From contig JAUSCZ010000007.1 in NCBI GenBank assembly GCA_030674475.1, forward strand, positions 669 through 64,668: a stretch of DNA of 64,000 nucleotides, in the 5' to 3' direction. This document shows positions 3,452 to 28,325 of the stretch, piece after piece. Each line of letters begins with the position of its first letter. Position 1 is the stretch's first letter. The stretch comes from Candidatus Omnitrophota bacterium. Lineage in GTDB: Bacteria > Omnitrophota > Gorgyraeia > Gygaellales > UBA12090. Position numbers and translations under genes: made by a program. The notes under the pieces are model-generated. The model was not told the DNA's origin and searched no databases. It saw only the letters and a program-made list of their open reading frames with translations.

Positions 3452-4178
3452 ATCCCGCCAGGGGTATTTTTTATTTGATAGCTTTAAAAAATATGGCTGT
3501 ATAGCGGGTTTTAGCCGGGGCAGGCTGAATTTAGGCTTTCAGAATAATCCTGACCTGAAGAAAAACCGGGAAAGTTTTTTAAGAGAGGTGGGCATAAAGC
3601 CGGATGAGCTTATTTGTCTTAAGCAGGTTCACGGTAATAAGATATTCCTGGCTAAAAAAGAGGATAAGGGCAAAGGGGCGTTTGATTATACTACGGCAAT
3701 CGCCGATTGCGACGGGATAATTACCCGGGAAAAGGAATTACCTTTGGCGGTGTTCAGCGCCGATTGCCTCTCGGTTTTTATGCTGGATGTCCGCAGTAAT
3801 GTCGGCGCGGTTATTCATGCCGGATGGCGGGGCAGTAGGGAAAGAATTGCCTTATCCGTCGTGAATATCTTAAAAGAAAAGTTTCTCAGTAATCCTGAAG
3901 ATATAATCTGCGGTTTTGGCCCTTGTATACGAAACTGTTGTTATGGGGTAGGTGAGGATTTCCAGGATTATTTTCCTGATTGCATAGAGGAAAGACAGGG
4001 AAAACTCTTTCTTGACCTGATTAAGATAAACTCTCAGCAGCTTTTAAGCGCGGGGGTTTTAGGAAAAAATATCAGCGATAGTCAAATCTGCACCTCTTGT
4101 CGTAATGATGAATTTTTCTCATATCGTAAAGAAGGTCAAAGCGCTGGGAGAATGATGTCGGTGATTATGGTAAAATGA
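3423..4178 (+). CDS. pgeF: Peptidoglycan editing factor PgeF / YfiH (DUF152, laccase-domain protein)
   Basis: Conserved HAGWRG and C-terminal CTSC motifs; 251 aa. Start may lie slightly downstream of the 3423 overlap. Confidence 0.75.
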   Translation: MTALSERIIESRQGYFLFDSFKKYGCIAGFSRGRLNLGFQNNPDLKKNRESFLREVGIKPDELICLKQVHGNKIFLAKKEDKGKGAFDYTTAIADCDGIITREKELPLAVFSADCLSVFMLDVRSNVGAVIHAGWRGSRERIALSVVNILKEKFLSNPEDIICGFGPCIRNCCYGVGEDFQDYFPDCIEERQGKLFLDLIKINSQQLLSAGVLGKNISDSQICTSCRNDEFFSYRKEGQSAGRMMSVIMVK

Positions 4179-4179
4179 A

Positions 4180-4207
4180 GTAGGGGCGGTTCGCGAACCG
4201 CCCCTAC
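4180..4207. repeat. Perfect 28-bp palindrome GTAGGGGCGGTTCGCGAACCGCCCCTAC (member of the TAGGG...CCCTA palindrome family)
   Basis: Seen directly. Lies immediately after the pgeF stop and could serve as a terminator-like hairpin. Confidence 0.8.
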
Positions 4208-4234
4208 AGCGATGTCTAAAACAAGGGGGTTAAT

Positions 4235-4711
4235 ATGGCGAAAATACTGCTTACTTATTATTCTTTAAGCGGGCATACCAAGAAGATGGCGGAATTGATT
4301 TTAGAGGGGATGAAGAAGGAAGAAGTAGATGTGTCTTTTAAAAGTATTGATGAGCTTAAGGTTGATGAGCTGTTGGATTATCAGGGGATTGTGATCGGCT
4401 CGCCGGTTTACTATGGCTCAATGGCCGCGCCTATCAAGAAGCTATTTGACGACTCGGTAAAATTCCACACCAAGCTGGACGGCCGCATAGGCGGAGCCTT
4501 TGCCTCCAGCGCTAATATCGGCGGCGGAAACGAAACCACCATCTTAGATATCTTGAACGCCATGCTTATTCATGGTATGATTATTCAAGGTGATCCTAAG
4601 GGCGACCATTATGGCCCGGTATCTATAGGCGCGCCTGATGAGCGTTCCCAGAAACAGTGCCTAAGATACGGGGAACGTTTTGCCAAATTGGTTAAGAAGT
4701 TATTTGTTTAG
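4235..4711 (+). CDS. Flavodoxin-like fold protein (WrbA/NAD(P)H:quinone oxidoreductase-like FMN protein)
   Basis: MAKILLTYYSLSGHTKKMAELI...GSPVYYGSMAAPIKKLFD fits the flavodoxin-like FMN-binding pattern. Confidence 0.6.
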   Translation: MAKILLTYYSLSGHTKKMAELILEGMKKEEVDVSFKSIDELKVDELLDYQGIVIGSPVYYGSMAAPIKKLFDDSVKFHTKLDGRIGGAFASSANIGGGNETTILDILNAMLIHGMIIQGDPKGDHYGPVSIGAPDERSQKQCLRYGERFAKLVKKLFV

Positions 4712-4751
4712 TTGCCGCTCTAAAAAAGTGGCAATGATTAAAGGGGGTAGT

Positions 4752-4985
4752 ATGTCACAAGTTACTGTGTATTCCACACCCAGCTGTTCTTATTGTATCC
4801 GGCTGAAAAGCTATTTGCGGCAAAAGGAGATTACTTTTACCACTATAGATGTCTCCCTTGACGCTCAAGGCTTGGAAAAGATGATTAGCCTCTCCGGGCA
4901 GATGGGGGTTCCGGTAATAGATATTGACGGAGAGGTTGTAGTGGGCTTTGATAAGGAAAAGATTGACAAATTATTAGGGCAATGA
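4752..4985 (+). CDS. Glutaredoxin-like protein (NrdH/Grx family, CSYC active site)
   Basis: MSQVTVYSTPSCSYCIRLKSYL...GVPVIDIDGEVVVGF; RBS AAGGGGG precedes the ATG at 4752. The ORF-track start at 4680 is probably too far upstream. Confidence 0.65.
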   Translation: MSQVTVYSTPSCSYCIRLKSYLRQKEITFTTIDVSLDAQGLEKMISLSGQMGVPVIDIDGEVVVGFDKEKIDKLLGQ

Positions 4986-5305
4986 GAGGGAAAGCGTATA
5001 TCGTTGTTTTTATAACCGCCAGTTCAAAAGAAGAAGCCCGAAAAATAGCCCGGGGGCTGCTGGAGGAAAAGCTGGCTGCCTGCGTAAATATTCTTCCCGG
5101 CCTTGAATCGCATTTTTGGTGGCAGGGTAAGATTGATAGCGCCAAGGAAGCGCTCTTGGTGATTAAGACTAAGAAAGAACTTTTTAATAAATTGGCCAAG
5201 AAGGTTAAGTCTCTGCATAGTTATAGCGTGCCGGAAATAATTGCCCTACCGATTGTTGCAGGGAATACAGAATATTTAAACTGGATAAATGATTCTACAA
5301 GGTAG
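4982..5305 (+). CDS. cutA: Divalent-cation tolerance protein CutA
   Basis: 107 aa. YIVVFITASSKEEARKIARGLLEEKLAACVNI...HSYSVPEIIALPI is characteristic of CutA1. Confidence 0.8.
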   Translation: MRGKAYIVVFITASSKEEARKIARGLLEEKLAACVNILPGLESHFWWQGKIDSAKEALLVIKTKKELFNKLAKKVKSLHSYSVPEIIALPIVAGNTEYLNWINDSTR

Positions 5306-5960
5306 CCCCATAGATTATCTAAGCGCGTTTTTAGGTGGAGTTTTAGTAAGTTTCTCGCCTTGCGTGTATCCTTTGGTTCCGATAACCTTAGGTTTTATCG
5401 GAGTAAAAGGCTCGGCCGGCCGCTTGCGGGGGTTTTATTTAAGCCTGGTCTATGTGTTAGGCCTGGCGGTTACTTATTCGGCGTTAGGATTAATTGCCGC
5501 CCTCAGCGGAAAACTTTTCGGTGAGATTTCTAGCCATCCCTTATCTTTTTTGATTGTAGGCAATGTCTGTATTCTGGCCGGGTTGTCTTTTTTTGAGGTA
5601 ATTAATATCCCTTTTATGGGTGTGCGCCTGCAGAATAAGATAGAGCGAAAAGGCGGATACTTATCGGTTTTTCTTTTGGGTTTGGCCTCAGGGTTAATAG
5701 CCGGCCCTTGCACCGCCCCGGCCTTGGGGGCGATATTAGTGTATGTGGCCAGCCGTCAGAATGTGGTATACGGAGCGAGCCTATTATTCAGTTTCGCCTA
5801 CGGAATGGGCTTTTTATTAATTTTAACCGGAACTTTTGGGGCGTTTTTTCTGCGTCTGCCGAAATCCGAGGCCTGGTTCGCGGGGATTAAAAAAGCCAGC
5901 GGTTTTATTTTAATAGCCGCGGGTGAATATTTCCTTATTCAGGCAGGGAGATTAATGTGA
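5289..5960 (+). CDS. ccdA: Cytochrome c-type biogenesis protein CcdA (DsbD-like thiol-disulfide transporter, membrane)
   Basis: Multi-TM protein with the SFSPCVYPLVP and GPCTAPALG cysteine motifs typical of CcdA/DsbD beta. Confidence 0.75.
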   Translation: MILQGSPIDYLSAFLGGVLVSFSPCVYPLVPITLGFIGVKGSAGRLRGFYLSLVYVLGLAVTYSALGLIAALSGKLFGEISSHPLSFLIVGNVCILAGLSFFEVINIPFMGVRLQNKIERKGGYLSVFLLGLASGLIAGPCTAPALGAILVYVASRQNVVYGASLLFSFAYGMGFLLILTGTFGAFFLRLPKSEAWFAGIKKASGFILIAAGEYFLIQAGRLM

Positions 5961-7839: not shown

Positions 7840-8450
7840 TGAAAGAGATTGTCTTTATAGATATTGATACCCAGTATGACTTTATGTTCTCTAAGGGGAG
7901 GCTGTATATAAATGAGGCCGAGAAAATAATTCCTAATTTAAAACTACTGACCGAGGCCGCTTTTAAGAGAGACATCCTGATTATTTCCACGGCAGATACA
8001 CACCTAAAGAACGATCCGGAATTTAAGCAGTTTCCCGCTCATTGCGTTGAAAAAACTCACGGCCAGAAAAAGATTCCCCAGACCCTGCTGAAGAAACATA
8101 TTTTTATCCCCCGGAAGATATTAACCAGAAAAGAATTATTAGATACAACTAAAGGACACAAACAGATAATAATAGAAAAAAATACCTACGATGTATTCAC
8201 TAATTTTAATCTTTCGCGGCTATTGAAGCCTTTTAATGAGGCTTTTATTTATGGCGTGGCCGTGGATTACTGCGTTAAATACGCGGTGCTTGGGCTTTTA
8301 CAGAACGGGCTTAAGGTGAATTTGGTGATGGACGCGGTTTCGGCAGTTGAGCCAAAAGAAGGCAAAGCTCTTTTGGCTAAATTTAAAAATAATGGAGTAA
8401 AATTAGTTAAGACCAGAGAGGTTATAAATAGACTGAAAGCAGAAATATGA
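7836..8450 (+). CDS. pncA: Isochorismatase-family hydrolase, probably nicotinamidase PncA
   Basis: Cysteine-hydrolase fold hallmarks (DxQxDF, ...AVDYCV). Translationally coupled to pncB. Confidence 0.55.
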   Translation: MMKEIVFIDIDTQYDFMFSKGRLYINEAEKIIPNLKLLTEAAFKRDILIISTADTHLKNDPEFKQFPAHCVEKTHGQKKIPQTLLKKHIFIPRKILTRKELLDTTKGHKQIIIEKNTYDVFTNFNLSRLLKPFNEAFIYGVAVDYCVKYAVLGLLQNGLKVNLVMDAVSAVEPKEGKALLAKFKNNGVKLVKTREVINRLKAEI

Positions 8451-11400
8451 AACCCAAATACTATTTAAATAAAGACAACGAGTTTGTGATTGAGAATTAT
8501 CACTTGAGTAAACCTTTTGCCAGCTTTTTTCCCGGCGTCGCCGGGGTCTGGGGGGTTCCGATTTGGGCCTTTTATGTCAACCGGGGCCAGGCTATTGCCA
8601 GCTTTGGAGTCCGGGATAAAGACCATCCGATTCTGGAATTCCAGCCGGCTAATAAGGCCTATCAACTCACTTCTTTGCAGGGCTTTAGGACCCTGATTAA
8701 GGAAAATTCCCGGAATAAAACTTTTTTTTATGATGTCTTTAACAGCGGCTTGAGCGCGCCAGGCTTTGAAATTGCCAACCAGATGCGGATAAACTCCTCT
8801 GAGCTTAAATTGAGGGAGATAAACCACACCTTAGGCTTAGAGATAAACATTGAATACTTTACTATTCCTAATGATAATTACGGAGCCTTGGTCCGAAAAT
8901 TAAGCATAAAAAATCTAACCCGTAAAGTCAGAGACTTAGAAATAATTGACGGTCTTCCTCAGATTATACCCTTCGGCACCAACAATTTCTTTTTAAAGGA
9001 ACTCTCCCGAACCATTGAAGCCTGGATGCAGGTAGAAAATCTGGAGAACAGTATTCCGTTCCTGCGGCTGGTGGTTGACCCGGCGGACCGGCCTGAGGTG
9101 GTGCGTATCCGGGAAGGGAATTTTTACCTGGCTTTTGATGAGCGGGGCCTGATTAAGCCGATAGTTGACCCGGAGGCAATCTTTGGCCAGATGAGCGATT
9201 TTACTTATCCCGCGCGATTTTTAAAAGCTAAAAAATTCAGTTATCCTAAGAAACAGCTCGCCCGCGGTAAAACCCCTTGTTGTATGGGTTGTCGCGCGAT
9301 TGCCCTGCGGGCCGATGAAACTTATGAGATTTATTCCCTGGCCGGGAATATGTCTACCTTAGATAAGCTGAAGGAAAACTCAAAAAGAATAGCCAGCAAA
9401 GAGTATCTCGCGGATAAGCAGGCTGAGAATAGAAAATTGATTGAAGATTTAACCTCCGGGGTATTTACTCATTCCGGGTCTAAAAATTTTGACCTTTATT
9501 GCCGGCAAAATTTTCTGGATAATGTCTTGCGTGGCGGCTATCCTTATTCTTTAAAACATTGCTCTGGCCTTACCACTATCCAGGTTTATTCCCGTAAGCA
9601 CGGTGATTTAGAACGGGATTATAACCGCTTCCTTATCGAGCCAACCTATTTCTCCCAGGGCAACGGCAACTACCGGGATGCCAATCAGAACCGCAGGTCG
9701 GATGTCTGGTTTAATCCGCTGGTAAAAGAAGAGAATATCCTGAACTTTTTTAATCTCCTGCAGACTGACGGCTATAATCCCCTGGTTATCAAACCGGATA
9801 ATTTTACCTTTAACGGAAATTATGCCGCCCTGGATAAATTTTTAAGTAAAGATGATTTTTCAAAACTCCGGACTTATTTAGAGAAGCCTTTTACCCCGGG
9901 TGAGCTGTTATATTCATTAGAGCAGAATGAAATAAATCTTAACGGCAGGGAGGAATTCTTGAAATCCGTCTTAGCCAATTCCGCCAAATCCTTTTCCGCC
10001 GAGCACGGCGAGGGCTTCTGGAGTGACCACTGGGCCTATTGCCTTGACCTTCTGATCAGCTTTTTGGCGGTCTATCCGGAAAGCCTTAAAAATATACTCT
10101 TAGAGAAGAAAGAGTTCACTTTTTTTGATAATTCCGAGGTCTTGCGGCCAAGGACAGAAAGATATGTCTTAAAAGGCAATCGGGTATTTCAATTTCATTC
10201 CCTGGCGAATAATCATGCCAAACGCGACCTGATTAAAAAGAGGGATGCCTATGCCCATGTCTCGCGCGTTAAAGATGGTTTGGGCGATATTTATAAAACT
10301 ACCCTGATGGTTAAGATGCTGGTAGTAATTGCCAATAAATTCGCCGGCCTGGATCCTTTTGGGGTGGGAGTGGAGATGGATGCCAATAAGCCTAATTGGT
10401 TTGATTCTTTGAACGGCCTGCCCGGATTATTGGGTTCCTCTACCTGTGAGACCTTTGAGCTTAAACGTTGGATTATTTTCCTGCGCTCAAGCCTTAAGGA
10501 ATTAAACCTCCAAAACAGCTGTTCTATGGAGCTTCCTTTGGAGCTTTATGAATTGCTTGGGGGCCTAAAGGCTATAAGCAGTGAAAAAGATGATTTTACT
10601 TTTTGGGATAAGACCCACAGCTTGAGAGAAGATTATCTTAAGAAGACCCTATTGGGTTTCTCCGGGGATTTGAGACAGATTAACTTAACAGAGATAGATG
10701 AGGCCTTAAGTAAATTTTTAGACAAGCTTGATGCCGGGCTGAAAAAGGCTTATGACGCCAAACATAGACTGCATTATTCTTATTTTATCAATGAGGTCAG
10801 CCAATATCAACCTTTAGAGAATTCTGAATCCGCGCCGGGAGTAAAACCGCTTAAATTCAAGCCGGTGCCCTTACCTTTATTTTTAGAAGGTCCGATGCAT
10901 TATTTAAGGACCTTAGACAATTCCAATCAAGCCAAAGAGGTGTTTAAGGCAATCCGTAAGTCCGGGCTTTTTGATAAAAAGCTTAAGATGTATAAGGTCT
11001 GCGCTCCCTTGGAGGATATGCCTGAAGAGATCGGCCGCTGTCGTATCTTTAGCCCCGGGTGGCTGGAGAACGAATCCGTCTGGCTGCATATGGAGTATAA
11101 GTATATATTTGAACTGCTTAAAAACGGGCTCTACGCCGAGTTTTTTGAAGATTTTAAAAATGTGCTGATTCCTTTTCAGAATCCGGCTCGTTACGGAAGG
11201 AGTATCCTGGAAAATTCCTCATTCCTGGTTTCCAGCGCCTTCGCGGATGAAAATTTGCACGGCACGGGGTTTGTGGCCCGCTTAAGCGGCTCAACCGCCG
11301 AGTTTATCAGTATCTGGCTTTATATGTGCTGCGGAGCGCGGCCTTTTTATCTGGATAAACAAGGAAGGCTTAATTTAGAATTTAAGCCGGTGCTTCCTTC

Positions 11401-11659
11401 CTGGTTGTTTAGCCAAAAAGAAGAGGGCGGATTTCCTAAGAACAGTTTTGCCTTTAAGTTTCTAAGTCGTGCCCTGGTGGTATACCACAACCCCAAGAAA
11501 AAAGATACCTTCGGCAAAAATGCCGCTAAGATACAAGAAATAACCGTAGAATATCCAGATAAAACCAAAAAAACCTTTCCCTCCCGTAATTTAGACTCTC
11601 CGGTTGCTGAAGATATCCGGCAAGGTAAAGTTTCCAGAATAGACGTTATTCTATCTTAA
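8447..11659 (+). CDS. Large (1070 aa) glycoside phosphorylase/hydrolase-like protein (GH94/GH65-type six-hairpin fold suspected)
   Basis: The N-terminus (FASFFPGVAGVWGVPIWAFYVNRGQ) and an internal GNGNYRDANQNRRSD motif resemble the GH94 cellobiose/chitobiose phosphorylase GxGxRDxNQD region. No firm family assignment is possible by eye. Confidence 0.4.
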   Translation: MKPKYYLNKDNEFVIENYHLSKPFASFFPGVAGVWGVPIWAFYVNRGQAIASFGVRDKDHPILEFQPANKAYQLTSLQGFRTLIKENSRNKTFFYDVFNSGLSAPGFEIANQMRINSSELKLREINHTLGLEINIEYFTIPNDNYGALVRKLSIKNLTRKVRDLEIIDGLPQIIPFGTNNFFLKELSRTIEAWMQVENLENSIPFLRLVVDPADRPEVVRIREGNFYLAFDERGLIKPIVDPEAIFGQMSDFTYPARFLKAKKFSYPKKQLARGKTPCCMGCRAIALRADETYEIYSLAGNMSTLDKLKENSKRIASKEYLADKQAENRKLIEDLTSGVFTHSGSKNFDLYCRQNFLDNVLRGGYPYSLKHCSGLTTIQVYSRKHGDLERDYNRFLIEPTYFSQGNGNYRDANQNRRSDVWFNPLVKEENILNFFNLLQTDGYNPLVIKPDNFTFNGNYAALDKFLSKDDFSKLRTYLEKPFTPGELLYSLEQNEINLNGREEFLKSVLANSAKSFSAEHGEGFWSDHWAYCLDLLISFLAVYPESLKNILLEKKEFTFFDNSEVLRPRTERYVLKGNRVFQFHSLANNHAKRDLIKKRDAYAHVSRVKDGLGDIYKTTLMVKMLVVIANKFAGLDPFGVGVEMDANKPNWFDSLNGLPGLLGSSTCETFELKRWIIFLRSSLKELNLQNSCSMELPLELYELLGGLKAISSEKDDFTFWDKTHSLREDYLKKTLLGFSGDLRQINLTEIDEALSKFLDKLDAGLKKAYDAKHRLHYSYFINEVSQYQPLENSESAPGVKPLKFKPVPLPLFLEGPMHYLRTLDNSNQAKEVFKAIRKSGLFDKKLKMYKVCAPLEDMPEEIGRCRIFSPGWLENESVWLHMEYKYIFELLKNGLYAEFFEDFKNVLIPFQNPARYGRSILENSSFLVSSAFADENLHGTGFVARLSGSTAEFISIWLYMCCGARPFYLDKQGRLNLEFKPVLPSWLFSQKEEGGFPKNSFAFKFLSRALVVYHNPKKKDTFGKNAAKIQEITVEYPDKTKKTFPSRNLDSPVAEDIRQGKVSRIDVILS

Positions 11660-13854: not shown

Positions 13855-14436
13855 ATGAAAGAAATCAGAATCCATGCCCGCGCCGGCCAGGGCGCGATAA
13901 CTACCGCCAGTATTTTAGGCTTTGCCTATTTTCTGGAGGAGAAGTTTCCCTACGCCTTTCCCAATTTCGGGGCGGCCCGGATGGGAGCGCCGATGAACGC
14001 CTTTGTCCGGGTTGACGATAAGCCGGTGCGCCTGCGTTCCCAGATTTATGAGCCGGATTATCTTTTGATTTCCGACGCCACATTACTGCGCGGGTTTAAT
14101 TGCTTCAAAGGTTTTAAGGATAATGGGGTGGCCATAATTAACGCCAGGCATGACTTTGGCATTCCGGAGCATAAAAGCGGACAAAAGATTTATCTGGTGC
14201 CGGCTAACGACATAGCTATGGAGACTATTGGAAGGCCCTTAGGTAATACTGCCTTGCTGGGGGCATACGTGGCGGCAACCGATGAGATAAAATTGGATTC
14301 TTTAATTCAGGCGATTACGCATAGATTTTCCGGTAAGGCGGTAGAGCAGAATATTTCAGCCGCCCGGAAAGGCTATGAATATATAAAGAAATGCAGGTTA
14401 TCCCCGCAGAGTGAGGAAAAATGTTTGGCCCATTAA
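13855..14436 (+). CDS. porG: Pyruvate/2-oxoacid:ferredoxin oxidoreductase gamma subunit
   Basis: MKEIRIHARAGQGAITTASILG is the hallmark of the PorG/KorC family. Confidence 0.85.
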   Translation: MKEIRIHARAGQGAITTASILGFAYFLEEKFPYAFPNFGAARMGAPMNAFVRVDDKPVRLRSQIYEPDYLLISDATLLRGFNCFKGFKDNGVAIINARHDFGIPEHKSGQKIYLVPANDIAMETIGRPLGNTALLGAYVAATDEIKLDSLIQAITHRFSGKAVEQNISAARKGYEYIKKCRLSPQSEEKCLAH

Positions 14437-14678
14437 TTTCCAAGCCCTCTACATCCAAAGCGAATAAAACCGGTTCCTGGCGGGTTGAACATAAGCCTAA
14501 GTTTTTAAAAAAAGATTGCATTGCCTGCAAGATGTGTGTTTTGATCTGCCCGGAGGCCTGCATAACCGGCGAAGCCAAGAATACCTACGATTATGATTCT
14601 AACTTTTGTAAAGGCTGCGGTAATTGCGCGGCAGTTTGTCCTAAAAAAGACATTTTGATGGTAAAGGAAGAGGAGTAA
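14421..14678 (+). CDS. porD: Pyruvate:ferredoxin oxidoreductase delta subunit (2x[4Fe-4S] ferredoxin-like)
   Basis: CIACKMCVLICPEAC ... CKGCGNCAAVCP: two CxxCxxCxxxCP motifs; 85 aa. Confidence 0.8.
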   Translation: MFGPLISKPSTSKANKTGSWRVEHKPKFLKKDCIACKMCVLICPEACITGEAKNTYDYDSNFCKGCGNCAAVCPKKDILMVKEEE

Positions 14679-14680
14679 AG

Positions 14681-15898
14681 ATGCGGGAGCTGTTAGAAGG
14701 ATCCCTCGCTGTAGCTGAGGCGATAAAATTATGCAAACCGGGGGTGATTTCTGCTTACCCGATTACCCCGCAAACCCATATCGTGGAGGAGTTAGCGGCA
14801 ATAGTCGCCAACGGAAAGCTCAAGGCTGAGTTTGTGAATGTGGAATCAGAACATTCCGCGGCCAGCGTGGTTTTAGGCGCCTCCGCGGCCGGGGTACGTT
14901 CTTTTACCGCTACCAGCTCTCAGGGGCTTCTGCTTATGTTAGAGGTAGTCTTTAATATCTCCGGGATGCGCTTTCCGGTAGTAATGACCTGTGCTAATAG
15001 GTCAATTTCCGCTCCTTTAAACATCTGGAATGACCATCAGGACGCCATTACGGTGCGCGATTCCGGATGGGTGCAGTTACACGCGGAGAATGTTCAGGAG
15101 GCCATTGATTTACATATCCAGGCCTACCGGATTGCCGAAGATCCTAAGATAATGCTCCCGGTGATGGTGAATATGGATGGCTTTATCCTTACCCACGGTT
15201 TAGAGGTGGTAGAGCTTCCAAGTCAGGATCAGGTGGATAGTTTTCTGCCCGCGTATAAAGCTTTATATAAATTAGATGTGAATAATCCGCTGACCTTTGG
15301 GCCCTTGGTTGATCCGGATTATTATATGGAGGCCCGCTTTGCCGTTCATCAAACCCTTAAAGATGTTTTAAAGCTTATTCCAGCGGTAAAAGAGGAATTT
15401 CAAAAAATATTCGGCCGCGCCTCCGGCGGTTTGGTTGAGGGGTATAGATTAGATGATGCCGAAAAAGTGATTGTGGCTATGGGTTCGGTCTGTGGCACGA
15501 TTAAGGATGTAATAGACGCCTTAAGGGAGAAGGGCAAGAAAGTAGGCTTACTTAAGATTATTACTTATCGGCCTTTGCCTATTGATGAGATATATCAGGC
15601 CTTAAAAAATGTGCCCCGGGTGGCGGTATTAGAGAAGGCGGTGTCTTTGGGTTCTTATAGCCCTTTACTGAGCGAAATCCGCGCGGTATTTAGCGGTAAA
15701 AAGAAATCTCCAGTGATCAGCGGTTTTGTTATCGGACTGGGAGGAAGGGATATTACCATTGATTCCATCAAAGAGGTATACAAAAGATTAAGCGCTAAAA
15801 CCATAAGCGAAGAATATATTGATTTAAAGCCAGAGTTATTAGACCCTTCTTTTAAGGATGGGAAGGTCTATCCTTCTGGATTAGAGGAAAGCGTATGA
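14681..15898 (+). CDS. porA: Pyruvate:ferredoxin oxidoreductase alpha subunit
   Basis: [32 protein letters not shown] is typical of PorA/VorA; 405 aa. Confidence 0.85.
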
Positions 15899-17934
15899 CC
15901 ACTCCAGCCGCGGAACATCTTTTTTGCGCCGGACACACCGCTTGCGCCGGATGCGGCCAGGCGGTTGCCGCCAGATTAGTCATAGATATTGCCGGAAAAA
16001 ACACTATGATTGCCAATAATACCGGTTGTCTGGAGGTTTTCTCCACCAAATATCCGGAATCATCCTGGGGAGTTCCCTGGATACATTCCTTATTTGAGAA
16101 TGCCGCGGCAGTGGCCTCCGGCATTGAGGCGGCCTTAAAGCATCTGGGAGTCAAGGATAAGATAAACGTCATCTGCCAGGCCGGCGACGGCGGGACCGCG
16201 GATATCGGCTTGCAGGCCCTTTCCGGAATGTGGGAAAGAGGCCACGACATTCTCTCTATCTGTTATGATAATGAAGCGTACATGAATTGTTTAAGCCTCT
16301 CAGCCTTGATTTTAACCGCGGATGGGCTTAAGAAAATAACTGAGGTAAGGGTCGGCGACGGGATTTATGCCTTCGACCAGAATACCCAGCACTTAGTGAT
16401 TAAAAAATGCAGCGGTATCTTTGATAACGGCAAAAAAGAGGTATTTGAATTGCAAACTCACCACCATTCCATAAAGGCAACCGCGAATCATCCTTTTCTG
16501 GTTTTAAAAAGAAACGGCAGAGGGCGGTCAAATTCTTTGGTCTGGAAGACGCTTGAGAATGTCAAAATCGGTGATCAGGTAATATCTTTAAAAGGGATGA
16601 ACGGCGCCTGCCGGTCGTTTAAATTCAATGAGATAAATAAAGTAAAAAAAGGCGATTATAAGGTTAATAAGCTTAATGAAGTAAATTTGCCCCGGGAATC
16701 CAGTCCCGAGTTGATGAAATACCTGGGGATATTTGTCGGTGACGGCTGGAGAAGGGCAGGCCGGGCTGAGATAGGATTTGCCCTGCCCAAAGGCAAAAAA
16801 GCCAGAGAGGTTCTGGTTGGCCTGCATAAAGAAATATTTTCTAGTCCCGTATCCCAGGATGAAAACTATCTTTCAATTTACTCGGTTAACTTAACTAAAT
16901 TTATAGATACATTGGGGTTGGGACAGGGGGCGAAGAATAAAACCATCCCCGGCTGGATATTCACCCTTCCCAAGGAAGAGAAAGAAGCGTTTGTTGAGGG
17001 CCTGATGCTGGCTGACGGGTATGATCATCAAGGGAGCAAAAGATATGTCTCGGCAAGTTTTGAGCTCCTGAAACGGATGCGCTTATTGCTCCAGACGCTT
17101 AATTACCGGGTGGGAAAGATTCATACCCAAACCAAGAAAAAAGGCACTAAATGCGTAAATAGGAACTTATTGGCAGATTCAGAATATGGGTATATCTGTT
17201 TTAGCCGGAAAAAACAACGGGATATGGAAAAATATCCTTCACAATGCCGGTATCAGGATTTCCTGATGGAGAATGAATTTTTTCAGACCGAAGAAATTAT
17301 CAGTGTAGAGTCTAAAGGCATAGAACCGACCCTGGATTTGCGGGTAGAGGATGAGCATAATTTTATCGCTGACGGCATTGTGGTGCATAATACCGGTGTT
17401 CAGCGCAGCGGATTGACCCCTTTTGAAACCAGCACCTCTACTACTCCGATAGGCAGTCAATCCGCGGGCAATCCCCGGCCCAAGAAGCCGATGCCGGAGA
17501 TTGCCGTGGCTCACGGTTTGGCTTATGTGGCTACAGCTTCGGTGGGCTACTTAAGAGATATAGAGAATAAGGTTAAAAAGGCCATAGCCATTAAGGGCCC
17601 GAAATATCTCCAGATTCACGTTCCCTGCCCTTTGGGCTGGAGGCATGAGTCTCAATTTACTTATGATATCGCTAAGCTCGCGGTGGAAACCGGGCTTTAC
17701 CCTTTAATAGAATATGAAAACGGAAAACTGACCAACGCGCGTAAATTAGCCAAGATTAAGCCGGTTGAGGAATATTTAAAATGTCAGGGAAGATTTAAAC
17801 ATATTATCAGCTCGCCTGAGTTAATTAAACAGATACAGGCGGTGGCGGATAAAAATATTGAGAGATACGGCCTGAGAGCGGAGCAAACCGTTCCACAACC
17901 GCCTCAAGCCGTAAACGCTCAACCAAAAGTCTAA
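15895..17934 (+). CDS. porB: Pyruvate:ferredoxin oxidoreductase beta subunit (TPP-binding), interrupted by an in-frame intein; mature extein ~311 aa
   Basis: Extein N-part ...[12 protein letters not shown]...GDGG...CYDNEAYMN and C-part [11 protein letters not shown]... match PorB. The 679-aa ORF is ~370 aa longer than normal PorB. Confidence 0.85.
16288..17391 (+). mobile_element. Intein (368 aa) with LAGLIDADG homing-endonuclease domain inserted in porB between YMN and TGVQRSG
   Basis: Begins with Cys ([14 protein letters not shown]...). Ends with ...IVVHN followed by extein Thr. Internal LAGLIDADG motifs [10 protein letters not shown] and [11 protein letters not shown]. The insertion splits the conserved PorB block YMN|TGxQRS. 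Confidence 0.75.
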
Positions 17935-17959: not shown

Positions 17960-18142
17960 ATGAAGGTAAGTGTTGATGTTTCAACTTGTGTGGGATGCGG
18001 TTTATGCGAGCAGGGTTGTCCGGAGGTTTTCCAGGTGCAGGGAGACGGCCTGGCCCATGTGCTCGGCTCTAACTGCGCGGCAAATCACAATATAAAAGAG
18101 GTAGCCGAGAGTTGTCCGGTAAGCTGTATTAAGGTTGAATAA
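17960..18142 (+). CDS. Small [4Fe-4S]/[3Fe-4S] ferredoxin
   Basis: 60 aa, CVGCGLCEQGCP...C; likely electron acceptor for PFOR. Confidence 0.7.
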   Translation: MKVSVDVSTCVGCGLCEQGCPEVFQVQGDGLAHVLGSNCAANHNIKEVAESCPVSCIKVE

Positions 18143-19633: not shown

Positions 19634-19924
19634 ATGCAGAAGAAAACAATTATAAAGATATTGGAAAGGGTTAAGGATTTTTCCCGGCAAAAGTATAAGG
19701 TGGAGATTAAGGGTATATTCGGCTCTTATGTAAGACAGGAGGCTAAAAGAAACAGCGATATAGATATCCTGGTGGATTTTTATAAGGATGCCGATTTATT
19801 AGATCTGTCCGGGTTATCTTTATTCCTGGAGAAAGAATTGAAGCGCAGGGTAGATGTTGTTCCTCTGTCTTCCCTAAGGAAAGAGATACGCCCGAATGTC
19901 TTAAGAGAGGCAATCTATCTATGA
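19634..19924 (+). CDS. Nucleotidyltransferase-domain antitoxin (MNT/MntA of HepT-MNT type II/VII TA system)
   Basis: GIFGSYVRQEAKRNSDIDILVDF is the minimal nucleotidyltransferase motif (GS...DxD). Confidence 0.7.
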   Translation: MQKKTIIKILERVKDFSRQKYKVEIKGIFGSYVRQEAKRNSDIDILVDFYKDADLLDLSGLSLFLEKELKRRVDVVPLSSLRKEIRPNVLREAIYL

Positions 19925-20268
19925 GGAATCATTCTTTGTATCTAAAAGATATAATAGAGGCACTGGATGCGATAGAAGAATTCGCGGAGGGCCTGGAATT
20001 TGAAGAATTCCGTAAAGATGACAAAACTTCCAGCGCGGTAATCAGGAAGTTTGAAATTATAGGAGAAGCATCCAAGAATATTTCAGCTAGCATAAGACGG
20101 AAATATCAGCAGGTGCCTTGGAAAGAGATGGCTGGTATGCGGGATAAACTGATTCACTTTTATTTTGGCGTAAATTATGAGCTTGTGTGGCAGACCATAA
20201 AACACAGGATTCCTCAAATAAGACCTCTTCTTAAAGAAATCCTCAAGGATACTCTTCGTTACACCTAA
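19921..20268 (+). CDS. HepT/DUF86 toxin (HEPN-family RNase partner of MNT)
   Basis: 115 aa, overlaps mnt by 4 nt (ATGA). DUF86-like, with an R(x)4HxY-type motif (MRDKLIHFY). Confidence 0.65.
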   Translation: MRNHSLYLKDIIEALDAIEEFAEGLEFEEFRKDDKTSSAVIRKFEIIGEASKNISASIRRKYQQVPWKEMAGMRDKLIHFYFGVNYELVWQTIKHRIPQIRPLLKEILKDTLRYT

Positions 20269-20668: not shown

Positions 20669-20932
20669 ATGACTATAGTGGATACCGCAAAGATTACCTC
20701 AAAAGGCCAGATTACTATTCCTAACCGGATTAGGAAGATTTTGCATCTTAGCGAAGGTTCATCTTTGGCTTTCGGAGTAGGCCGGGAAGGAGTTTTATTG
20801 ATGCCGTGCAAGGTTACGGCTGACTCGGTATATACCGAGCAGGAATGGGTTAAGATTGAGAAACTGGCCGCTGTCAAGGGTAAGGTTTATAAGAGTTCAA
20901 AGGCCGCCAAAAAACATATCCAAGGGCTATGA
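20669..20932 (+). CDS. AbrB/MazE/SpoVT-family antitoxin
   Basis: MTIVDTAKITSKGQITIPNRIRKILHLSEGSSLAF is a swapped-hairpin AbrB-type DNA-binding N-terminus. Confidence 0.7.
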   Translation: MTIVDTAKITSKGQITIPNRIRKILHLSEGSSLAFGVGREGVLLMPCKVTADSVYTEQEWVKIEKLAAVKGKVYKSSKAAKKHIQGL

Positions 20933-21207
20933 GGTTTGAATTTAAGCCTTCCTTTGACCGGTCAATTAAGGCCTTTCCGGAAAGAGAAAAGCAGGAGTTA
21001 AAGGATGCCGCTTGCCGATTGATAGATGCCTTATCCGGACAAGAGTTAATCCCTAAAGGTATGGGTTTGAAGAAGCTTAGAGGAAATTTCTGGGAGATGC
21101 GCAAAGGTTTAAAGACCAGGATACTTTTTAGGCGCGAGAAAGATTGGCTTGAGTTTATCCTGGCCGGAGATCACAACGATATCAAACGTTTCCTGAGAAG
21201 GGCTTGA
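20929..21207 (+). CDS. RelE/ParE-superfamily toxin (partner of the AbrB-type antitoxin)
   Basis: 92 aa, overlaps the antitoxin by 4 nt. Paralogous to 28777..29070. Confidence 0.6.
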   Translation: MRFEFKPSFDRSIKAFPEREKQELKDAACRLIDALSGQELIPKGMGLKKLRGNFWEMRKGLKTRILFRREKDWLEFILAGDHNDIKRFLRRA

Positions 21208-21475: not shown

Positions 21476-21819
21476 TTTAGGCAAAAGATGGCCAACCCAA
21501 AAGATAACCCGGATAAAATCCCGGTAGCGCGCTGTGACAGTAATCAAGCCCTCTCCTTATTGGGAGAGGGTGGGGTGAGGGAATACATAAACCAATTAGT
21601 TCCCCCTCATCCTAACCTTCTCCCGCAGGGGGAGAAGGAAGTAATTGGCAATAACTGTCACAATCAGACTGTGTCGCAATCTCTTAAAATGACCATTTTG
21701 TCATTCTGAGGGAGCAGGGCGACCGAAGAATCTCGTCGTTAATTTAAAAGACGAGATCCTTCGCTAGCGCTCAGGATGACATTATGACACAGTCTGAATG
21801 CAAGAGAAAGGACTTTGTG

Positions 21820-24153
21820 ATGTTTAAAAAACTGATTTCTATTCTTTTGTCTTTTACTTTTATCACCACTCAGCCTGTATTCGCCCAAGGAGTGGCCCAG
21901 CTGAATATGGCCCAATACCTGGGTTCAATGCCGGCTGTTGCGGCAGACCGGTTCCGTCCTTTGCATATGCGCTATTTCTCCTATGATATAGAGAAAGATA
22001 ACTTCCAGCTACTCTTAGATAAAGGAGACAATAAGGATATAAAGGAAGTTGAACTTCAGGAAAAGACCAAGGTTCTGATGGAGTATTTCCAAATTGGCTT
22101 AGCCCTGCCTAATGATAAGTTCTGGGTAAACCTAAGGCCGGATGCCCAAGACCAGATCATTGATCCGGAATTAGAGCAGACTGATTTAGGCAAGATAATG
22201 TTAGAGGCAGACTTGCAGTTAAAGAAGGATACCGCCAGCTTTACCTCACCCCAGACCACAGAAGGCAGACAATACTGGGATAAGCTCTATAAGAAGGCCG
22301 GAGAATTATTCGGCACCGAAAACATCACTATCCCCACCATCACCCGTCCCTGGATAGTCCCGGGCGAGATAATCCTAAGGCAAGGAGAGGATTCAGCCTA
22401 TATCTTTAAGGCCAATATGAAGGTGATGTTAGAGCATGATTATTTGGTCAGTAGGGGCGGGTCGCGAACCGCCCCTACGTATCAACAATACGCCTTTTCC
22501 GACCCCCGGATGAAGGAGTTAAACGAATATTCCACCCAACTTATCAGAGAGCTGATTATCCCCAAGCTGACCAAAGAGGTAAACACCTCCAAAAGATACG
22601 CCGCTCTTCGGCAGGTATTCTTTTCTCTGGTAATGGCCAGATGGTTTAAGGACACTTTCACTGGAAAGCCCGGCCAATATGCCAGCCTGATCGACAGCCA
22701 CAACCTCAACAATCTCACCTCCAAAGAGGCCTGGAGCAAAACCTTCTACTTCAACGAATACAAGAAGTCCTTTGAACAAGGCGAATACAACCTTAAGGAG
22801 AATATCGGCACCCCTTATGGGCAAATAATCAGGAGCTATGTCAGCGGGGGCATCGTAGGCAGTAGTAGCGCAATGACTCAGCATACATACCATAATGGTA
22901 AAAATAATGATGGAAACCCAAAACATCTCGTTGCTGCTATTATTAAACGTGATAAGCGGTTCGGGAATAAAACTGGAAATCTTTATGTTACAATGCACAC
23001 AAATAATGAAATAGTTAAAATGGAAGTAAATAATTCAGGAATGGGCGAAGTAGAGATTATTCCAAAATCAAAAGATTTTAATACGGATAATAAAAAAGGC
23101 TCTTCGCCGATGGAGGCAGGGCAGAAAGATATGGATTCTTTTTCTCTTGAACAGATAGAAGAAATGCGAAAGCTTGAACAAAGATTGTGGGTTATAGTTA
23201 AGGACATTGAAAAGATACTTGATGAAGTGGAATTAAGTAAGCTCCAGAACAAGGGTGAAATTGAGATTACGAATGATGGCTTTAAAGGTATTCATAGAAT
23301 GTTAGCCTATTTAAAGACTCTTACCCGGGAGGGTACAAGAATAGAAATAAATAATGGAGCAATAGATGGAATCGCGGATATGTTTTCTATAATAGGCTTA
23401 GTAGATATTCTGCCGGAAGGATATGAGGTGCGATCAGGACCAAGATTATTAACATTAAGGGGTAGTATTTCTGAGTTAAAACAGCTTCAGGAAGATTGGG
23501 AAAAGTGGGAGGTTAACCCGGAGAATGTGGTAAAAAGAATCGTAGCTCAGATTGGCTCTGCGTCTGAGGAAGATATAAAACTTATTGTAAAAACTTTTCG
23601 GGAAGAGATTAACCGCAACCCTACCGTAGAAGAGGCGGGAGAAATCCTCGGTGATGCTTTTGTGAGTCCTAAAGGTGATGGCGTAAAGGAAATGGCAGGG
23701 GAAAAGATAGCGGAGCTGAAGCAAAAAGCTTCCTCGTCGGCAATGAAATCAAGCAAAATTCCCGAAAATACCGGCGGTATTGATTTCCGTGCCATGAACT
23801 ATATGGTTCAGCCGATGGGGAGTTTTAAGGATTTGCGGTTTGGCCTGCCTACGCTGACCAGCAGCGCGTTAGAGAGGATTGACTTGGATCAGGAGTTAGA
23901 CTCCCTGCGCAATATGGTCAAGGCCGGGCTCGTGCCTTCGGGAGAGAGGGTCAAGGAATACTTAGCCGCCTGCTTTCAGAAAGGTAAGATTGAAGAAAGG
24001 CAGGATGACCTCTTAGTTTGTCTGGCCGAGATCTACCGCCTGGCCGAGGAGGAGAATTTAGAAACCAGCCCGGAACTGCGGGAGTCCCTGGTGATTGTAG
24101 ACACCGGCAAATTCGTCCTCTTGCCTAACAACCAAAAGGTGGGGCTGAATTAA
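21820..24153 (+). CDS. Large secreted protein, paralog A (777 aa; signal peptide MFKKLISILLSFTFITTQPVFAQG; conserved N- and C-terminal domains, divergent centre)
   Basis: N-terminal ~360 aa and C-terminal ~130 aa are near-identical at nucleotide level to paralog B. No known domain recognised. RBS AAAGGA precedes the ATG at 21820, so the ORF-track start at 21784 is probably upstream of the real start. Confidence 0.7.
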   Translation: MFKKLISILLSFTFITTQPVFAQGVAQLNMAQYLGSMPAVAADRFRPLHMRYFSYDIEKDNFQLLLDKGDNKDIKEVELQEKTKVLMEYFQIGLALPNDKFWVNLRPDAQDQIIDPELEQTDLGKIMLEADLQLKKDTASFTSPQTTEGRQYWDKLYKKAGELFGTENITIPTITRPWIVPGEIILRQGEDSAYIFKANMKVMLEHDYLVSRGGSRTAPTYQQYAFSDPRMKELNEYSTQLIRELIIPKLTKEVNTSKRYAALRQVFFSLVMARWFKDTFTGKPGQYASLIDSHNLNNLTSKEAWSKTFYFNEYKKSFEQGEYNLKENIGTPYGQIIRSYVSGGIVGSSSAMTQHTYHNGKNNDGNPKHLVAAIIKRDKRFGNKTGNLYVTMHTNNEIVKMEVNNSGMGEVEIIPKSKDFNTDNKKGSSPMEAGQKDMDSFSLEQIEEMRKLEQRLWVIVKDIEKILDEVELSKLQNKGEIEITNDGFKGIHRMLAYLKTLTREGTRIEINNGAIDGIADMFSIIGLVDILPEGYEVRSGPRLLTLRGSISELKQLQEDWEKWEVNPENVVKRIVAQIGSASEEDIKLIVKTFREEINRNPTVEEAGEILGDAFVSPKGDGVKEMAGEKIAELKQKASSSAMKSSKIPENTGGIDFRAMNYMVQPMGSFKDLRFGLPTLTSSALERIDLDQELDSLRNMVKAGLVPSGERVKEYLAACFQKGKIEERQDDLLVCLAEIYRLAEEENLETSPELRESLVIVDTGKFVLLPNNQKVGLN

Positions 24154-25674: not shown

Positions 25675-25756
25675 AACTTCGATCTGCTTTAGCAGTGTAG
25701 TCTTATCCCGGTAGCAGTATAAATTCAATCATTAGCATACAGAAAAAGTATGGGAT

Positions 25757-25795
25757 GGCGGTCCGCACTACCCGGGCCGCCATTTTTATTTTTAA
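25757..25795 (+). terminator. Rho-independent terminator ATGGCGGTCCGCactacCCGGGCCGCCAT + TTTTATTTTT (copy 3)
   Basis: Identical to the 21284 copy. Confidence 0.75.
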
Positions 25796-25844
25796 CCCGC
25801 CCTATTCTTCGGCAATCGCCGTTTTTCGCTTATTTTTTCCTTTT

Positions 25845-25946
25845 TTTACCCCGCCTTTTCTGTCTTCCGACGACAATCCCTTCCCAGGAAAGCGCTTTCT
25901 CAAAAACCCGCCTTGGCCATTGAAACGGGTAAATTCTGTGGTATAC
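25845..25946 (+). promoter_or_regulatory. Conserved ~70-bp block plus promoter TTGAAA-16-TGgTATACT (copy 3) driving paralog B
   Basis: -35 at 25919..25924 and extended -10 at 25938..25946. Only a ~60-nt leader to the RBS GGGGGA. Confidence 0.6.
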
Positions 25947-26009
25947 TTTAGGCAAAAGATGGCCAACCCAAAAGATAAACCAAATAAAGTTCAAGTAGGG
26001 GGATATAAA

Positions 26010-28325
26010 ATGTTTAAAAAACTGATCTCTATTCTTTTGTCTTTTACTTTTATCACCACCCAGCCCGTATTCGCCCAAGGCGTAGCCCAGCTGAATATGG
26101 CCCAATACCTGGGTTCAATGCCGGCTGTTGCGGCAGACCGGTTCCGTCCTCTGCATATGCGCTATTTATCTTACGATGCGGCTACTGATAATTTCCAGCT
26201 TCTTTTAGATAAAGGGGATGATCAGGATATTAAGGTAGGGAACGGTCGCGACCGTTCCCTACAGGAAAAGACCAAGGTCCTGATGGAGTATTTCCAGATA
26301 GGATTAGCCCTGCCTAATGACAAGTTCTGGGTAAACCTAAGGCCGGATGCCGAAGACCAGATAATTGACCCGGAGTTAGAAAAGACCGATATGGGTAAGA
26401 TAATGCTGGAGTCAGACCTGCAGTTAAAGAAGGATACTGCCGGCTTCACCTCACCCCAGACCACAGAAGGCAGACAATACTGGGATAAGCTTTATAAGAA
26501 AGCCGGAGAACTCTTCGGCACCGAAAACATCACCATCCCCACCATCACCCGTCCCTGGATAGTCCCGGGTGAGATAATCCTAAGGCAAGGCGAAGACTCG
26601 GCCTATATCTTCAAGGCCAATATGAAGGTGATGCTGGAGCATGACTACTTAAGCTCTCAGCCTTCAGCTCTCAGCTCTCAGCAATATAATTTCAAAGACC
26701 CCCGGATGAAAGAGTTGAACGAATACTCCAGCCAACTGATTAGAGAGTTGATTATCCCTAAATTAACCAAAGAGGTAAACACCTCTAAAAGATACGCCGC
26801 CTTAAGACAGGTATTCTTTTCCTTAGTCATGGCCCGCTGGTTTAAGGATACTTTCAGCGGCAAACCTGGCCAATACTCCCAGTTGATTGACAGCCACAAC
26901 CTCAACAACCTCACCTCCAAGGAGGCCTGGTCCAAGACAACCTACTTCAACGAATACAAGAAGTCCTTTGAAAAAGGCGAATACAACCTTAAGGAAGACA
27001 TCTCCACCCCTACCGGCCAGGTGATCAGGAGTTATGTCAGCGGGGGGATTACTGGTTCAAGCAGCGCAATGGGTAAGAATATAACCCATAATAATGGAGA
27101 GCACCCTCTTGATGTTGTTAATATTTTTTATAAAATGCCGAAAGGACATAACTCCGGAAATCTTTTTCTTGTGAAATCCATAGGCGATAAAACAATAGTA
27201 GAAATAGTCTCCTCAAATTCTCCGGAACGCCCAGGCAAAGAAAATATTATAAAGAATGAAGCAAGGGCCGGCTCAGCGCTGATGGAGGCAAAGCCTGCGG
27301 AATTTTTCTCTTTTGAAGAAAGCGAGGAGTTAAGAAAGAATCTTGAACAGAATATGTGGGTAAGGGTGGAGGATATTAAAACAATACTTTCTAACGCCTT
27401 GAATAGCATAGATGTTAATAATGACGCTTTTCCGAATATTCGTAAAGATATTAATAGTATTTTAATGTATTTAAATATTTTTAACAATAGGGATGCAAGA
27501 ATAAAAGGAAAAGATATAGATGAGATTGTGGAAATTCTTTACAAAAAAGGCACCTCCAGCGAGAAGTCCTTGTTTGATATTCTTCCGAAAGGATATAAGG
27601 TATGGTCGGGAGGGCGATCTGTAACATTAAGTGGCAGTGTTTCAGAATTAAGACGGTTCCAGGAAGCTTGGGAAAAGCTAGAAATTGATGCGGAGGCTGT
27701 AGTAAAGAGAATCGTAGGGCAAACGGGTGCTGCGAGTGAGAAATATGTAAAATATATTGTGGAAAGATTCCGGGAAAAGATTGACCGTAACCCTACTATG
27801 CAAGAGACAGGAGAAATTATAGGCTACGTTATTCAGAATCATAAAGGAAATGAGAGCCTGCCGGAAATAGTAGATGAAAAGATAGCGGAGATTATGGCTT
27901 CTTCCTCGATGGAGACAATTTCTAAGTCTGTTCCTAAAAACGCCGGTGGTATTGATTTCCGGACTATGAACTATCTGGTCCAGCCGATGGGGAGTTTTAA
28001 GGATTTGCGGTTTGGCTTGCCTACTTTAACCAGCAGCGCGTTAGAGAGGATTGACCTGGATAAGGAATTAGACTCCCTGCGCGATATGGTCAAGGCCGGG
28101 ATGGTGCCTTCGGGGATGCGGGTCAAGGAATACCTGGCCGCCTGCTTCCAGAAAGGTAAGATTGAGGAAAAGCAGGATGACCTCTTAGTCTGTCTGGCCG
28201 AGATCTACCGCCTGGCTGAGGAGGAGAACTTAGAAACCAGCCCGGAACTGCGGGAGTCCCTGGTAATTGTAGACACCGGTAAATTCGTCCTCATGCCTAA
28301 CAACCAAAAGGTGGGGCTGAGTTAA
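26010..28325 (+). CDS. Large secreted protein, paralog B (771 aa; same signal peptide and conserved termini as paralog A)
   Basis: Nucleotide-level near-identity to paralog A over ~26010..27070 and ~27950..28325, with the centre ~40% aa identity. The ORF-track start at 25755 is a read-through of the upstream module. Confidence 0.7.
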   Translation: MFKKLISILLSFTFITTQPVFAQGVAQLNMAQYLGSMPAVAADRFRPLHMRYLSYDAATDNFQLLLDKGDDQDIKVGNGRDRSLQEKTKVLMEYFQIGLALPNDKFWVNLRPDAEDQIIDPELEKTDMGKIMLESDLQLKKDTAGFTSPQTTEGRQYWDKLYKKAGELFGTENITIPTITRPWIVPGEIILRQGEDSAYIFKANMKVMLEHDYLSSQPSALSSQQYNFKDPRMKELNEYSSQLIRELIIPKLTKEVNTSKRYAALRQVFFSLVMARWFKDTFSGKPGQYSQLIDSHNLNNLTSKEAWSKTTYFNEYKKSFEKGEYNLKEDISTPTGQVIRSYVSGGITGSSSAMGKNITHNNGEHPLDVVNIFYKMPKGHNSGNLFLVKSIGDKTIVEIVSSNSPERPGKENIIKNEARAGSALMEAKPAEFFSFEESEELRKNLEQNMWVRVEDIKTILSNALNSIDVNNDAFPNIRKDINSILMYLNIFNNRDARIKGKDIDEIVEILYKKGTSSEKSLFDILPKGYKVWSGGRSVTLSGSVSELRRFQEAWEKLEIDAEAVVKRIVGQTGAASEKYVKYIVERFREKIDRNPTMQETGEIIGYVIQNHKGNESLPEIVDEKIAEIMASSSMETISKSVPKNAGGIDFRTMNYLVQPMGSFKDLRFGLPTLTSSALERIDLDKELDSLRDMVKAGMVPSGMRVKEYLAACFQKGKIEEKQDDLLVCLAEIYRLAEEENLETSPELRESLVIVDTGKFVLMPNNQKVGLS

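Follow-up and report, generated by a model that had tools for sequence, protein, structure and literature searches.

A predicted class-1 intein with a nested LAGLIDADG homing endonuclease in the porB gene of a Candidatus Omnitrophota bacterium

Inteins are known mainly from replication, recombination and repair proteins, where they usually occupy ATP-binding sites. The solved endonuclease-bearing inteins TliVMA and PhoVMA (7qsu, 7qss, 7qst), PI-PkoII (2cw7), PI-PfuI (1dq3) and PI-SceI (1vde) share a Hint horseshoe in which a LAGLIDADG domain lies between the N- and C-terminal lobes, and solved inteins of this type reside in ATPase, polymerase and ribonucleotide reductase hosts. Here we describe an element of the same architecture whose host is instead a metabolic oxidoreductase that uses thiamine pyrophosphate (TPP) and iron-sulfur (FeS) clusters. 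It lies in porB, the gene for the TPP- and [4Fe-4S]-binding beta subunit of a four-subunit pyruvate:ferredoxin oxidoreductase (PFOR), in a 64,000-nucleotide stretch of Candidatus Omnitrophota DNA (contig JAUSCZ010000007.1), referred to below as the window and numbered from its first nucleotide. We consider, with a probability of about 0.93, that positions 16288–17391 of the window encode, in frame in porB, a canonical intein of class 1 that carries a nested LAGLIDADG homing endonuclease and that splices and homes. Its mechanism is standard for class-1 inteins, and the host and the insertion site are the unusual part. A full-text literature search turned up no description of an intein in PFOR or PorB, which does not prove that none exists. 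Papers that contain terms for both treat them separately, and as far as its main text goes a 2016 survey of inteins (PMC4760082) mentions neither pyruvate nor PFOR.

The porB open reading frame (ORF; 15895–17934 on the forward strand, stop codon included) is the last gene of a porGDAB operon and encodes 679 residues, compared with 296 residues in the PFOR beta chain 9bt4_C and 300 positions in the NCBIfam PorB model. An earlier reading of the window, made from its sequence only, had called the gene oversized against a typical length of about 300–310 residues and had placed an insert at 16288–17391, and the translation of the ORF agrees with these limits to the base. The insert is a single block of 368 residues that lies between CYDNEAYMN and TGVQRSG, begins with Cys (TGT at 16288–16290), ends in ...DGIVVHN followed by Thr and contains two LAGLIDADG motifs, all of which had been read correctly. 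The Pfam model Intein_splicing (gathering score 35.8) covers the block from end to end (2–155 of 155) with 53.8 bits, and the NCBIfam models intein_Nterm and intein_Cterm reach 30.3 bits (cut-off 24.5) and 26.7 bits (cut-off 15.6), respectively. At the level of sequence comparison these curated profile scores exclude a chance resemblance to inteins.

The class-1 catalytic set is complete in the window intein, with Cys1, T65-x-N-H68, D350, H357, H367-N368 and Thr+1. In an alignment of 58 PorB inteins the residues T65, N67, H68, D350, H357, N358, F359, H367 and N368 are invariant, and all 57 homologs that cover the respective positions keep Cys1, the TxNH motif, Asp and His of block F, the C-terminal HN and Thr+1. 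When one genome was scanned for each GTDB species, at least 486 stretches encoding a relative of the element were recovered, of which the best 80 loci were analysed; the HN↓T junction (the arrow marks the boundary between intein and extein) is found at 80/80 of these loci as well as in 57/57 homologs. When the intein was compared with PDB sequences by phmmer, blocks B, F and G aligned with the Ssp DnaB mini-intein, and residues 123–271, which include both LAGLIDADG motifs, aligned with the endonuclease domain of PI-PkoII (E=7.5e-8). The two motifs are about 90 residues apart and the acidic residue is kept in both (D152 and D243), and PF14528 (LAGLIDADG_3) is present in the precomputed annotation of many of the homologs. 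An AlphaFold2 model of the intein, built with the 58 homologs as input, has a mean predicted local distance difference test (pLDDT) score of 92.3 and a predicted template modelling (pTM) score of 0.90. The top Foldseek matches of this model in the PDB are TliVMA (E=1e-22, template modelling (TM) score 0.72), PhoVMA, PI-PkoII, PI-SceI and PI-PfuI, followed lower in the ranking by mini-inteins for the Hint lobes and I-DmoI-DNA complexes for the endonuclease domain, and the Foldseek probability is 1.00 for solved inteins and for Hedgehog Hint domains. The intein and the nested LAGLIDADG endonuclease that the sequence-only reading had proposed are both upheld in this way, the intein (class 1, with blocks A, B, F, G) by profile, residue and structure-model matches, and the endonuclease by its two motifs, the phmmer alignment and the structure model.

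Removal of the block leaves a PorB of 311 residues that matches the NCBIfam PorB model in one stretch (11–298 of 300) and the Pfam TPP_enzyme_C domain with 72.4 bits over 2–150 of 151. Residues 1–293 of this extein-only protein align to residues 1–296 of 9bt4_C with 361 bits, and the alignment is uninterrupted across the junction, so that the joined exteins are contiguous with both the PorB model and the solved chain. A natural intein-free PorB of the same length (P0121, 311 residues) is 98% identical to the predicted spliced product. Its gene, of 936 nt, occupies positions 3001–3936 of contig L003 from an ENA assembly of Hainich H52 groundwater, lies in a syntenic porGDAB operon, and is equal in length to the exteins of the window with 93.1% nucleotide identity. 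In a blastn comparison of the window with L003 the alignment stops at window position 16287 and restarts at about 17389. The sequence of the L003 allele around this point is GACAACGAGGCCTATATGAAT↓ACTGGCGTCCAACGCAGTGGG, a candidate target of the endonuclease, and by this comparison the L003 porB has the form of a precise empty site. In related genomes the insert was never seen as a separate fused domain; only the same-site splicing element or a precise empty site was seen.

The intein interrupts the conserved DNEAYMN↓TG(V/I)QRS block at the end of the TPP motif and in the substrate pocket, and alignments to 9bt4_C and to the Desulfovibrio africanus PFOR (1b0p) confirm the earlier statement that a nearly invariant block is split. 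Counted along the 1b0p alignment (chain index +1), the junction falls between the equivalents of Asn996 and Thr997 of the D. africanus enzyme, five residues past the Thr991/Val993 region of the GDG...N TPP motif. The window cysteines in CAGC and TGC of the N-extein and in VPCP of the C-extein align with Cys812, Cys815, Cys840 and Cys1071 of D. africanus PFOR, which we take to be the ligands of the proximal cluster. Without splicing, the precursor would be unable to complete the TPP site or the proximal cluster, since the intein divides the TPP motif in two and parts three of the four proximal-cluster ligands from the fourth; splicing is therefore very probably obligatory for PFOR activity. In the D. 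africanus enzyme Asn996 lines the pyruvate pocket and rotates upon substrate binding, and the equivalent residue of a Sulfolobus 2-oxoacid:ferredoxin oxidoreductase (OFOR) affects substrate specificity (PMC5020499). A partial Nanoarchaeota protein of 633 residues from a metagenome-assembled genome (MAG; P0120) carries a second endonuclease-containing intein within the GDG motif (FAGDGG↓CYSED...LNGN↓SYDIG), some 30 residues N-terminal to YMN↓C, so that in this protein two inteins flank the TPP motif.

Splicing of the PorB intein, which the conserved residues and the selection acting on the exteins lead us to infer, would begin with translation of the 679-residue precursor and an N-S acyl shift at Cys1. 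The resulting thioester would be attacked by Thr+1 to give a branched intermediate, cyclisation of Asn368 aided by His367 would release the 368-residue intein, and an O-N shift would establish the normal peptide bond in ...DNEAYMN-TGVQRS..., yielding a PorB of 311 residues. In homing, the released endonuclease would cut intein-free porB at the conserved site, and repair would copy the intein in. Such a cycle would account for the spread of the element over bacterial and archaeal phyla, for the occurrence of intein-plus and intein-free alleles side by side in close relatives, and for the mini-intein and dead-endonuclease variants, which would represent later stages of the cycle.

At all of the 80 loci analysed the element is contained in a single in-frame high-scoring segment pair, with the junctions N↓C...HN↓T, and lies inside PorB. 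According to the record titles, the bacterial hosts of these loci include Omnitrophota, Aerophobetes, Cloacimonadota, Poribacteria, Parcubacteria/Patescibacteria and Vermiphilus as well as MAGs labelled Planctomycetia and Clostridia, and the archaeal hosts include Woese-, Nano-, Micr- and Aenigmatarchaeota, Ca. Forterrea, Bathyarchaeia, Heimdallarchaeota, ANME-1/Methanophagales and Methanosarcinales, so that DPANN, Asgard and ANME lineages are all represented. A protein search with the intein alone returned 204 clusters at E≤1e-5. Those among the matches listed either have TPP_enzyme_C beside Intein_splicing or derive from gene calls lacking part of the gene, and their hosts include Omnitrophota, Aerophobetes, Patescibacteria, DPANN archaea and Nitrososphaerota; the pipeline of the Joint Genome Institute (JGI) already labels some clusters 'PFOR beta subunit/intein/homing endonuclease'. 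The allele is widespread among uncultured anaerobes of both domains, is abundant in public metagenome data and is partly recognised by automatic annotation. Of the earlier suggestion that host and allele are unusual, the part that stands is that the literature search turned up no description; the allele is not rare, being present in at least 80 GTDB species representatives and 204 clusters. Homologs match the window intein at 55–65% identity, but their C-exteins often match that of the window at only 40–50%. The intein is thus often better conserved than the gene around it, as would be expected of an element that moves horizontally from one diverged porB to another. When 1.84 billion representatives were searched exhaustively, identity was about 58% within the PorB allele and dropped sharply to ≤36% outside it, where the nearest relatives are the inteins of SufB and of T4-like phage portal proteins. 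The PorB allele was not found on viral contigs in IMG/VR, which returned only distant inteins (≤30% identity), and a viral vector for the intein was rejected on this ground.

Inteins at the same PorB site range from 201 to 371 residues and comprise full-length forms (about 366–371 residues), part-deleted forms (302–349 residues) and mini-inteins (201–224 residues); in one further protein, P0243, the LAGLIDADG motifs are degenerate (LGIFIASGQ and LIKGMTNTNGV). The intein-free contig L003 and an intein-plus contig, L012, share one assembly ('Hain_H52_02um_R3'), and therefore the presence of the intein is polymorphic among near relatives in one aquifer. The genes flanking the insertion in the window are nearer to intein-free L003 (93–96% nucleotide identity) than to intein-bearing L012 (88–92%). 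Of the 65 synonymous differences between the window and the L003 allele, 23 crowd into 102 nt at the junction, reaching about 70 nt upstream and about 30 nt downstream of where the intein is inserted (Fisher p=4e-8, with the tested interval chosen post hoc), compared with never more than 12 per 102 nt in porA. Over the 18 nt past the junction, both intein-plus alleles share four synonymous states that distinguish them from the empty allele. This clustering resembles a co-conversion tract.

Several points weigh against the interpretation of the PorB block as a splicing and homing intein, or limit what can be claimed from it. Both protein splicing and DNA cleavage are activities that we infer, and the clustering of synonymous changes at the junction was spotted post hoc. 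The divergence between the window and L012 is about equal for the intein and for the host genes (dS, the synonymous divergence, 0.31 against 0.39), and therefore a vertically inherited intein that was precisely lost from the L003 lineage fits as well as, and is as possible as, a recent gain by homing. The Pfam model LAGLIDADG_3 scores only 21.0–21.6 bits on the window intein, just under its gathering score of 22.5, and is the one domain model applied to the intein that stays below its cut-off, whereas Intein_splicing, intein_Nterm and intein_Cterm exceed theirs. As regards the host, the extein-only protein reaches 388.8 bits with the NCBIfam PorB equivalog NF008819 and misses the cut-off of 405, and therefore pyruvate as the substrate is deduced from the best family matches and the operon structure: NF008819 is still the best family, ahead of the VorB-type (331 bits) and oxalate oxidoreductase (297 bits) models, and the GDG...N motif, the cluster cysteines and porG, porD and porA as neighbours are all present. 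The subthreshold LAGLIDADG_3 score and the equal divergence, together with the same-site variants in which the endonuclease is degenerate or deleted, are what could be expected if the intein splices but its endonuclease is inactive, in which case it would persist in this lineage as an immobile passenger handed down vertically. We regard this as unlikely, although it is the most serious of the alternatives. The acidic residues of both LAGLIDADG motifs are kept, the endonuclease part of the model is of high confidence and matches solved active enzymes, and intein-plus and intein-free alleles occur together in one groundwater assembly. Moreover, between the window and L012 (95% identical) dN/dS is 0.054 for the exteins, 0.094 for the intein and 0.066 for the endonuclease domain, the last value being low like that of the exteins. 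These ratios point to purifying selection on both exteins and on the intein including its endonuclease domain, and are consistent with an enzyme that is still functional.

The same selection on the exteins bears on a reading in which the block is a non-splicing Hint/LAGLIDADG insertion that makes porB a pseudogene, or in which the gene is an assembly chimera. With exteins under strong purifying selection, functional PorB would be made, and the intein would hence splice. What speaks for a damaged gene is found in a relative, L001 (5165–7203 in the 444-kb contig_3842 of ENA ERZ1286166), where three single-base indels cause frameshifts inside the intein and porB is called as two genes. A decaying intein in L001 was considered and rejected: the indels lie in homopolymers, and the short-read contig L012, which shares 99.8% identity with L001 over 7.1 kb, has an intact ORF, and therefore the L001 frameshifts are long-read assembly errors. 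In the window the ORF is intact, every splicing residue is present, the identical 679-residue protein was found again in an independent Logan assembly and the same junctions recur in 80 independent genomes, so that we give this reading hardly any credence. A split or N-terminally shortened porB, as might be supposed from proteins of about 540 residues that begin 'MNC', was likewise rejected, since in L004 (NCBI GCA_043808405.1) the N-extein lies in frame upstream; the true ORF there is 3623–5623 and encodes 666 residues, and the annotated start is the Met of 'YMN↓C'. Many such NCBI proteins are named 'hypothetical' or 'LAGLIDADG family homing endonuclease', with the in-frame N-extein left unannotated. 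It is also conceivable, although improbable in our view, that splicing is conditional and responds to redox state or oxygen, perhaps through a Cys1–Cys41 disulfide, so that PFOR would be inactive or unassembled until the cell is reduced. Cys41 (window 16408–16410) is invariant in 58/58 PorB inteins, compared with Val (133) or Ile (14) in relatives from other hosts, PFOR is an oxygen-sensitive enzyme of anaerobes whose cofactor sites (the TPP motif and the proximal [4Fe-4S] ligands) are divided by the intein, and redox-controlled splicing is documented in other inteins in the part of the literature represented by PMC6195587. However, Cys in place of Val or Ile can be neutral in a hydrophobic core, close relatives thrive without the intein, and the mini and degenerate variants suggest a selfish life cycle. 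If such a switch were real, it could explain the persistence of the allele in many anaerobic lineages of both prokaryotic domains.

The features of the por operon and of the intein are compiled in Table 1. The 60-residue ferredoxin gene downstream of porB is kept in L001, L002 and L004, and its product is the probable electron acceptor of PFOR. No second intein was detected in a six-frame translation of the 64-kb window searched with the family hidden Markov model, and the dnaB gene of the window (42724–44067, 447 residues) has an uninterrupted DnaB_C domain, in agreement with the earlier observation that it is intein-free. Elsewhere in the window, two apparent toxin-antitoxin pairs are encoded on the forward strand, one at 19634–20268 with a nucleotidyltransferase (MNT-like) and a HepT-like RNase, and the other at 20669–21207 with a MazE/AbrB-type antitoxin and an unassigned 92-residue ORF. 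Three long forward-strand ORFs at 8447–11659, 21784–24153 and 25755–28325 (1070, 789 and 856 residues) have zero Pfam matches at E≤1e-5.

Table 1. Positions of the por operon genes and of the parts of the PorB intein in the window.
Feature	Position	Strand	Basis
porG (gamma subunit, POR domain), first gene of the operon	13855..14436	+	ORF; syntenic genes in L001, L003 and L004 with PF01558 POR
porD (delta subunit, 2x[4Fe-4S] ferredoxin-like)	14421..14678	+	ORF; syntenic genes with Fer4 families
porA (alpha subunit)	14681..15898	+	ORF; syntenic genes with POR_N and PFOR_II
porB precursor (N-extein, intein and C-extein)	15895..17934	+	ORF; Pfam and NCBIfam matches; identical protein in independent Logan assembly
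N-extein, 131 residues, GDGGTADIG...CYDNEAYMN end, with GDG start of TPP motif and 3 cluster-ligand Cys	15895..16287	+	Alignment to 9bt4_C and 1b0p up to Asn996
Predicted intein, 368 residues, Cys1 to Asn368	16288..17391	+	Pfam and NCBIfam intein models; AlphaFold2/Foldseek; precise absence in L003 allele
Hint N-terminal lobe (intein residues 1-129), with block A Cys1 and invariant Cys41	16288..16674	+	Boundary by mini-intein homologs; match to Ssp DnaB mini-intein 1mi8
Block B, T65-A-N-H68 (TxxH)	16480..16491	+	T65, N67 and H68 invariant in 58 sequences
LAGLIDADG homing-endonuclease domain (intein residues 130-318)	16675..17241	+	phmmer match to PI-PkoII; Foldseek match to I-DmoI; missing from mini-inteins
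LAGLIDADG motif 1, LGIFVGDGW, intein residues 146-154, D152 kept	16723..16749	+	Sequence
LAGLIDADG motif 2, intein residues 235-245, D243 kept	16990..17022	+	Sequence; Pfam LAGLIDADG_3 at 21.0-21.6 bits
Hint C-terminal lobe (intein residues 319-368), blocks F and G	17242..17391	+	Invariant residues; NCBIfam intein_Cterm; alignment to Ssp DnaB and NpuDnaB inteins
C-extein, 180 residues and stop, Thr+1 first (TGVQRSG...), fourth cluster-ligand Cys (VPCP)	17392..17934	+	Alignment to 9bt4_C and 1b0p from Thr997 on
Single-cluster [4Fe-4S] ferredoxin, 60 residues, directly downstream of porB	17960..18142	+	Pfam Fer4_13 and Fer4_15

With the PorB intein, the preference of inteins for the most conserved catalytic motifs is seen to reach a different cofactor chemistry, at a TPP and substrate site in an enzyme of central carbon and energy metabolism. 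Every stage of the homing cycle can be found at this one site, as full, dead-endonuclease, mini and empty alleles, and the allele offers a ready marker for gene flow between domains in anoxic habitats. The loss of the N-extein from many NCBI MAG annotations has a practical consequence, namely that PFOR may be scored wrongly as missing or incomplete in metabolic reconstructions. An intein with Thr+1 from mesophilic groundwater bacteria could also serve protein engineering.

In comparison with known systems, the PorB intein shares Cys1, TxxH, the block-F Asp and His and the terminal His-Asn with the solved endonuclease-bearing inteins, and the VMA inteins TliVMA and PhoVMA match its model with Foldseek TM scores of 0.64–0.73; sequence identity to the solved inteins is, however, only 12–20%, and unlike them the PorB intein has Thr as its +1 nucleophile. 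The inteins of SufB and of T4-like phage portal proteins are 30–36% identical to it over the full 368 residues and have the same domain order, and SufB resembles PorB in being a non-replicative host with a link to FeS metabolism, but these inteins reside in other host proteins and at other insertion sites and have Val or Ile where the PorB inteins have Cys41. The splicing lobes of the solved Ssp and Npu DnaB mini-inteins (1mi8, 4o1r) align with those of the PorB intein at blocks B, F and G, the DnaB segment IKATANHRFL being one of those matched, whereas these mini-inteins lack the endonuclease domain that the PorB intein has and reside in a replicative helicase. On the side of the host, chain C of 9bt4 and domain VI of D. 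africanus PFOR (1b0p) share GDG...DNEAYMNTG(I/V)QRS and the cluster cysteines with the predicted spliced PorB; the solved PFORs are free of inteins, whereas the porB product of the window would need protein splicing to attain that form.

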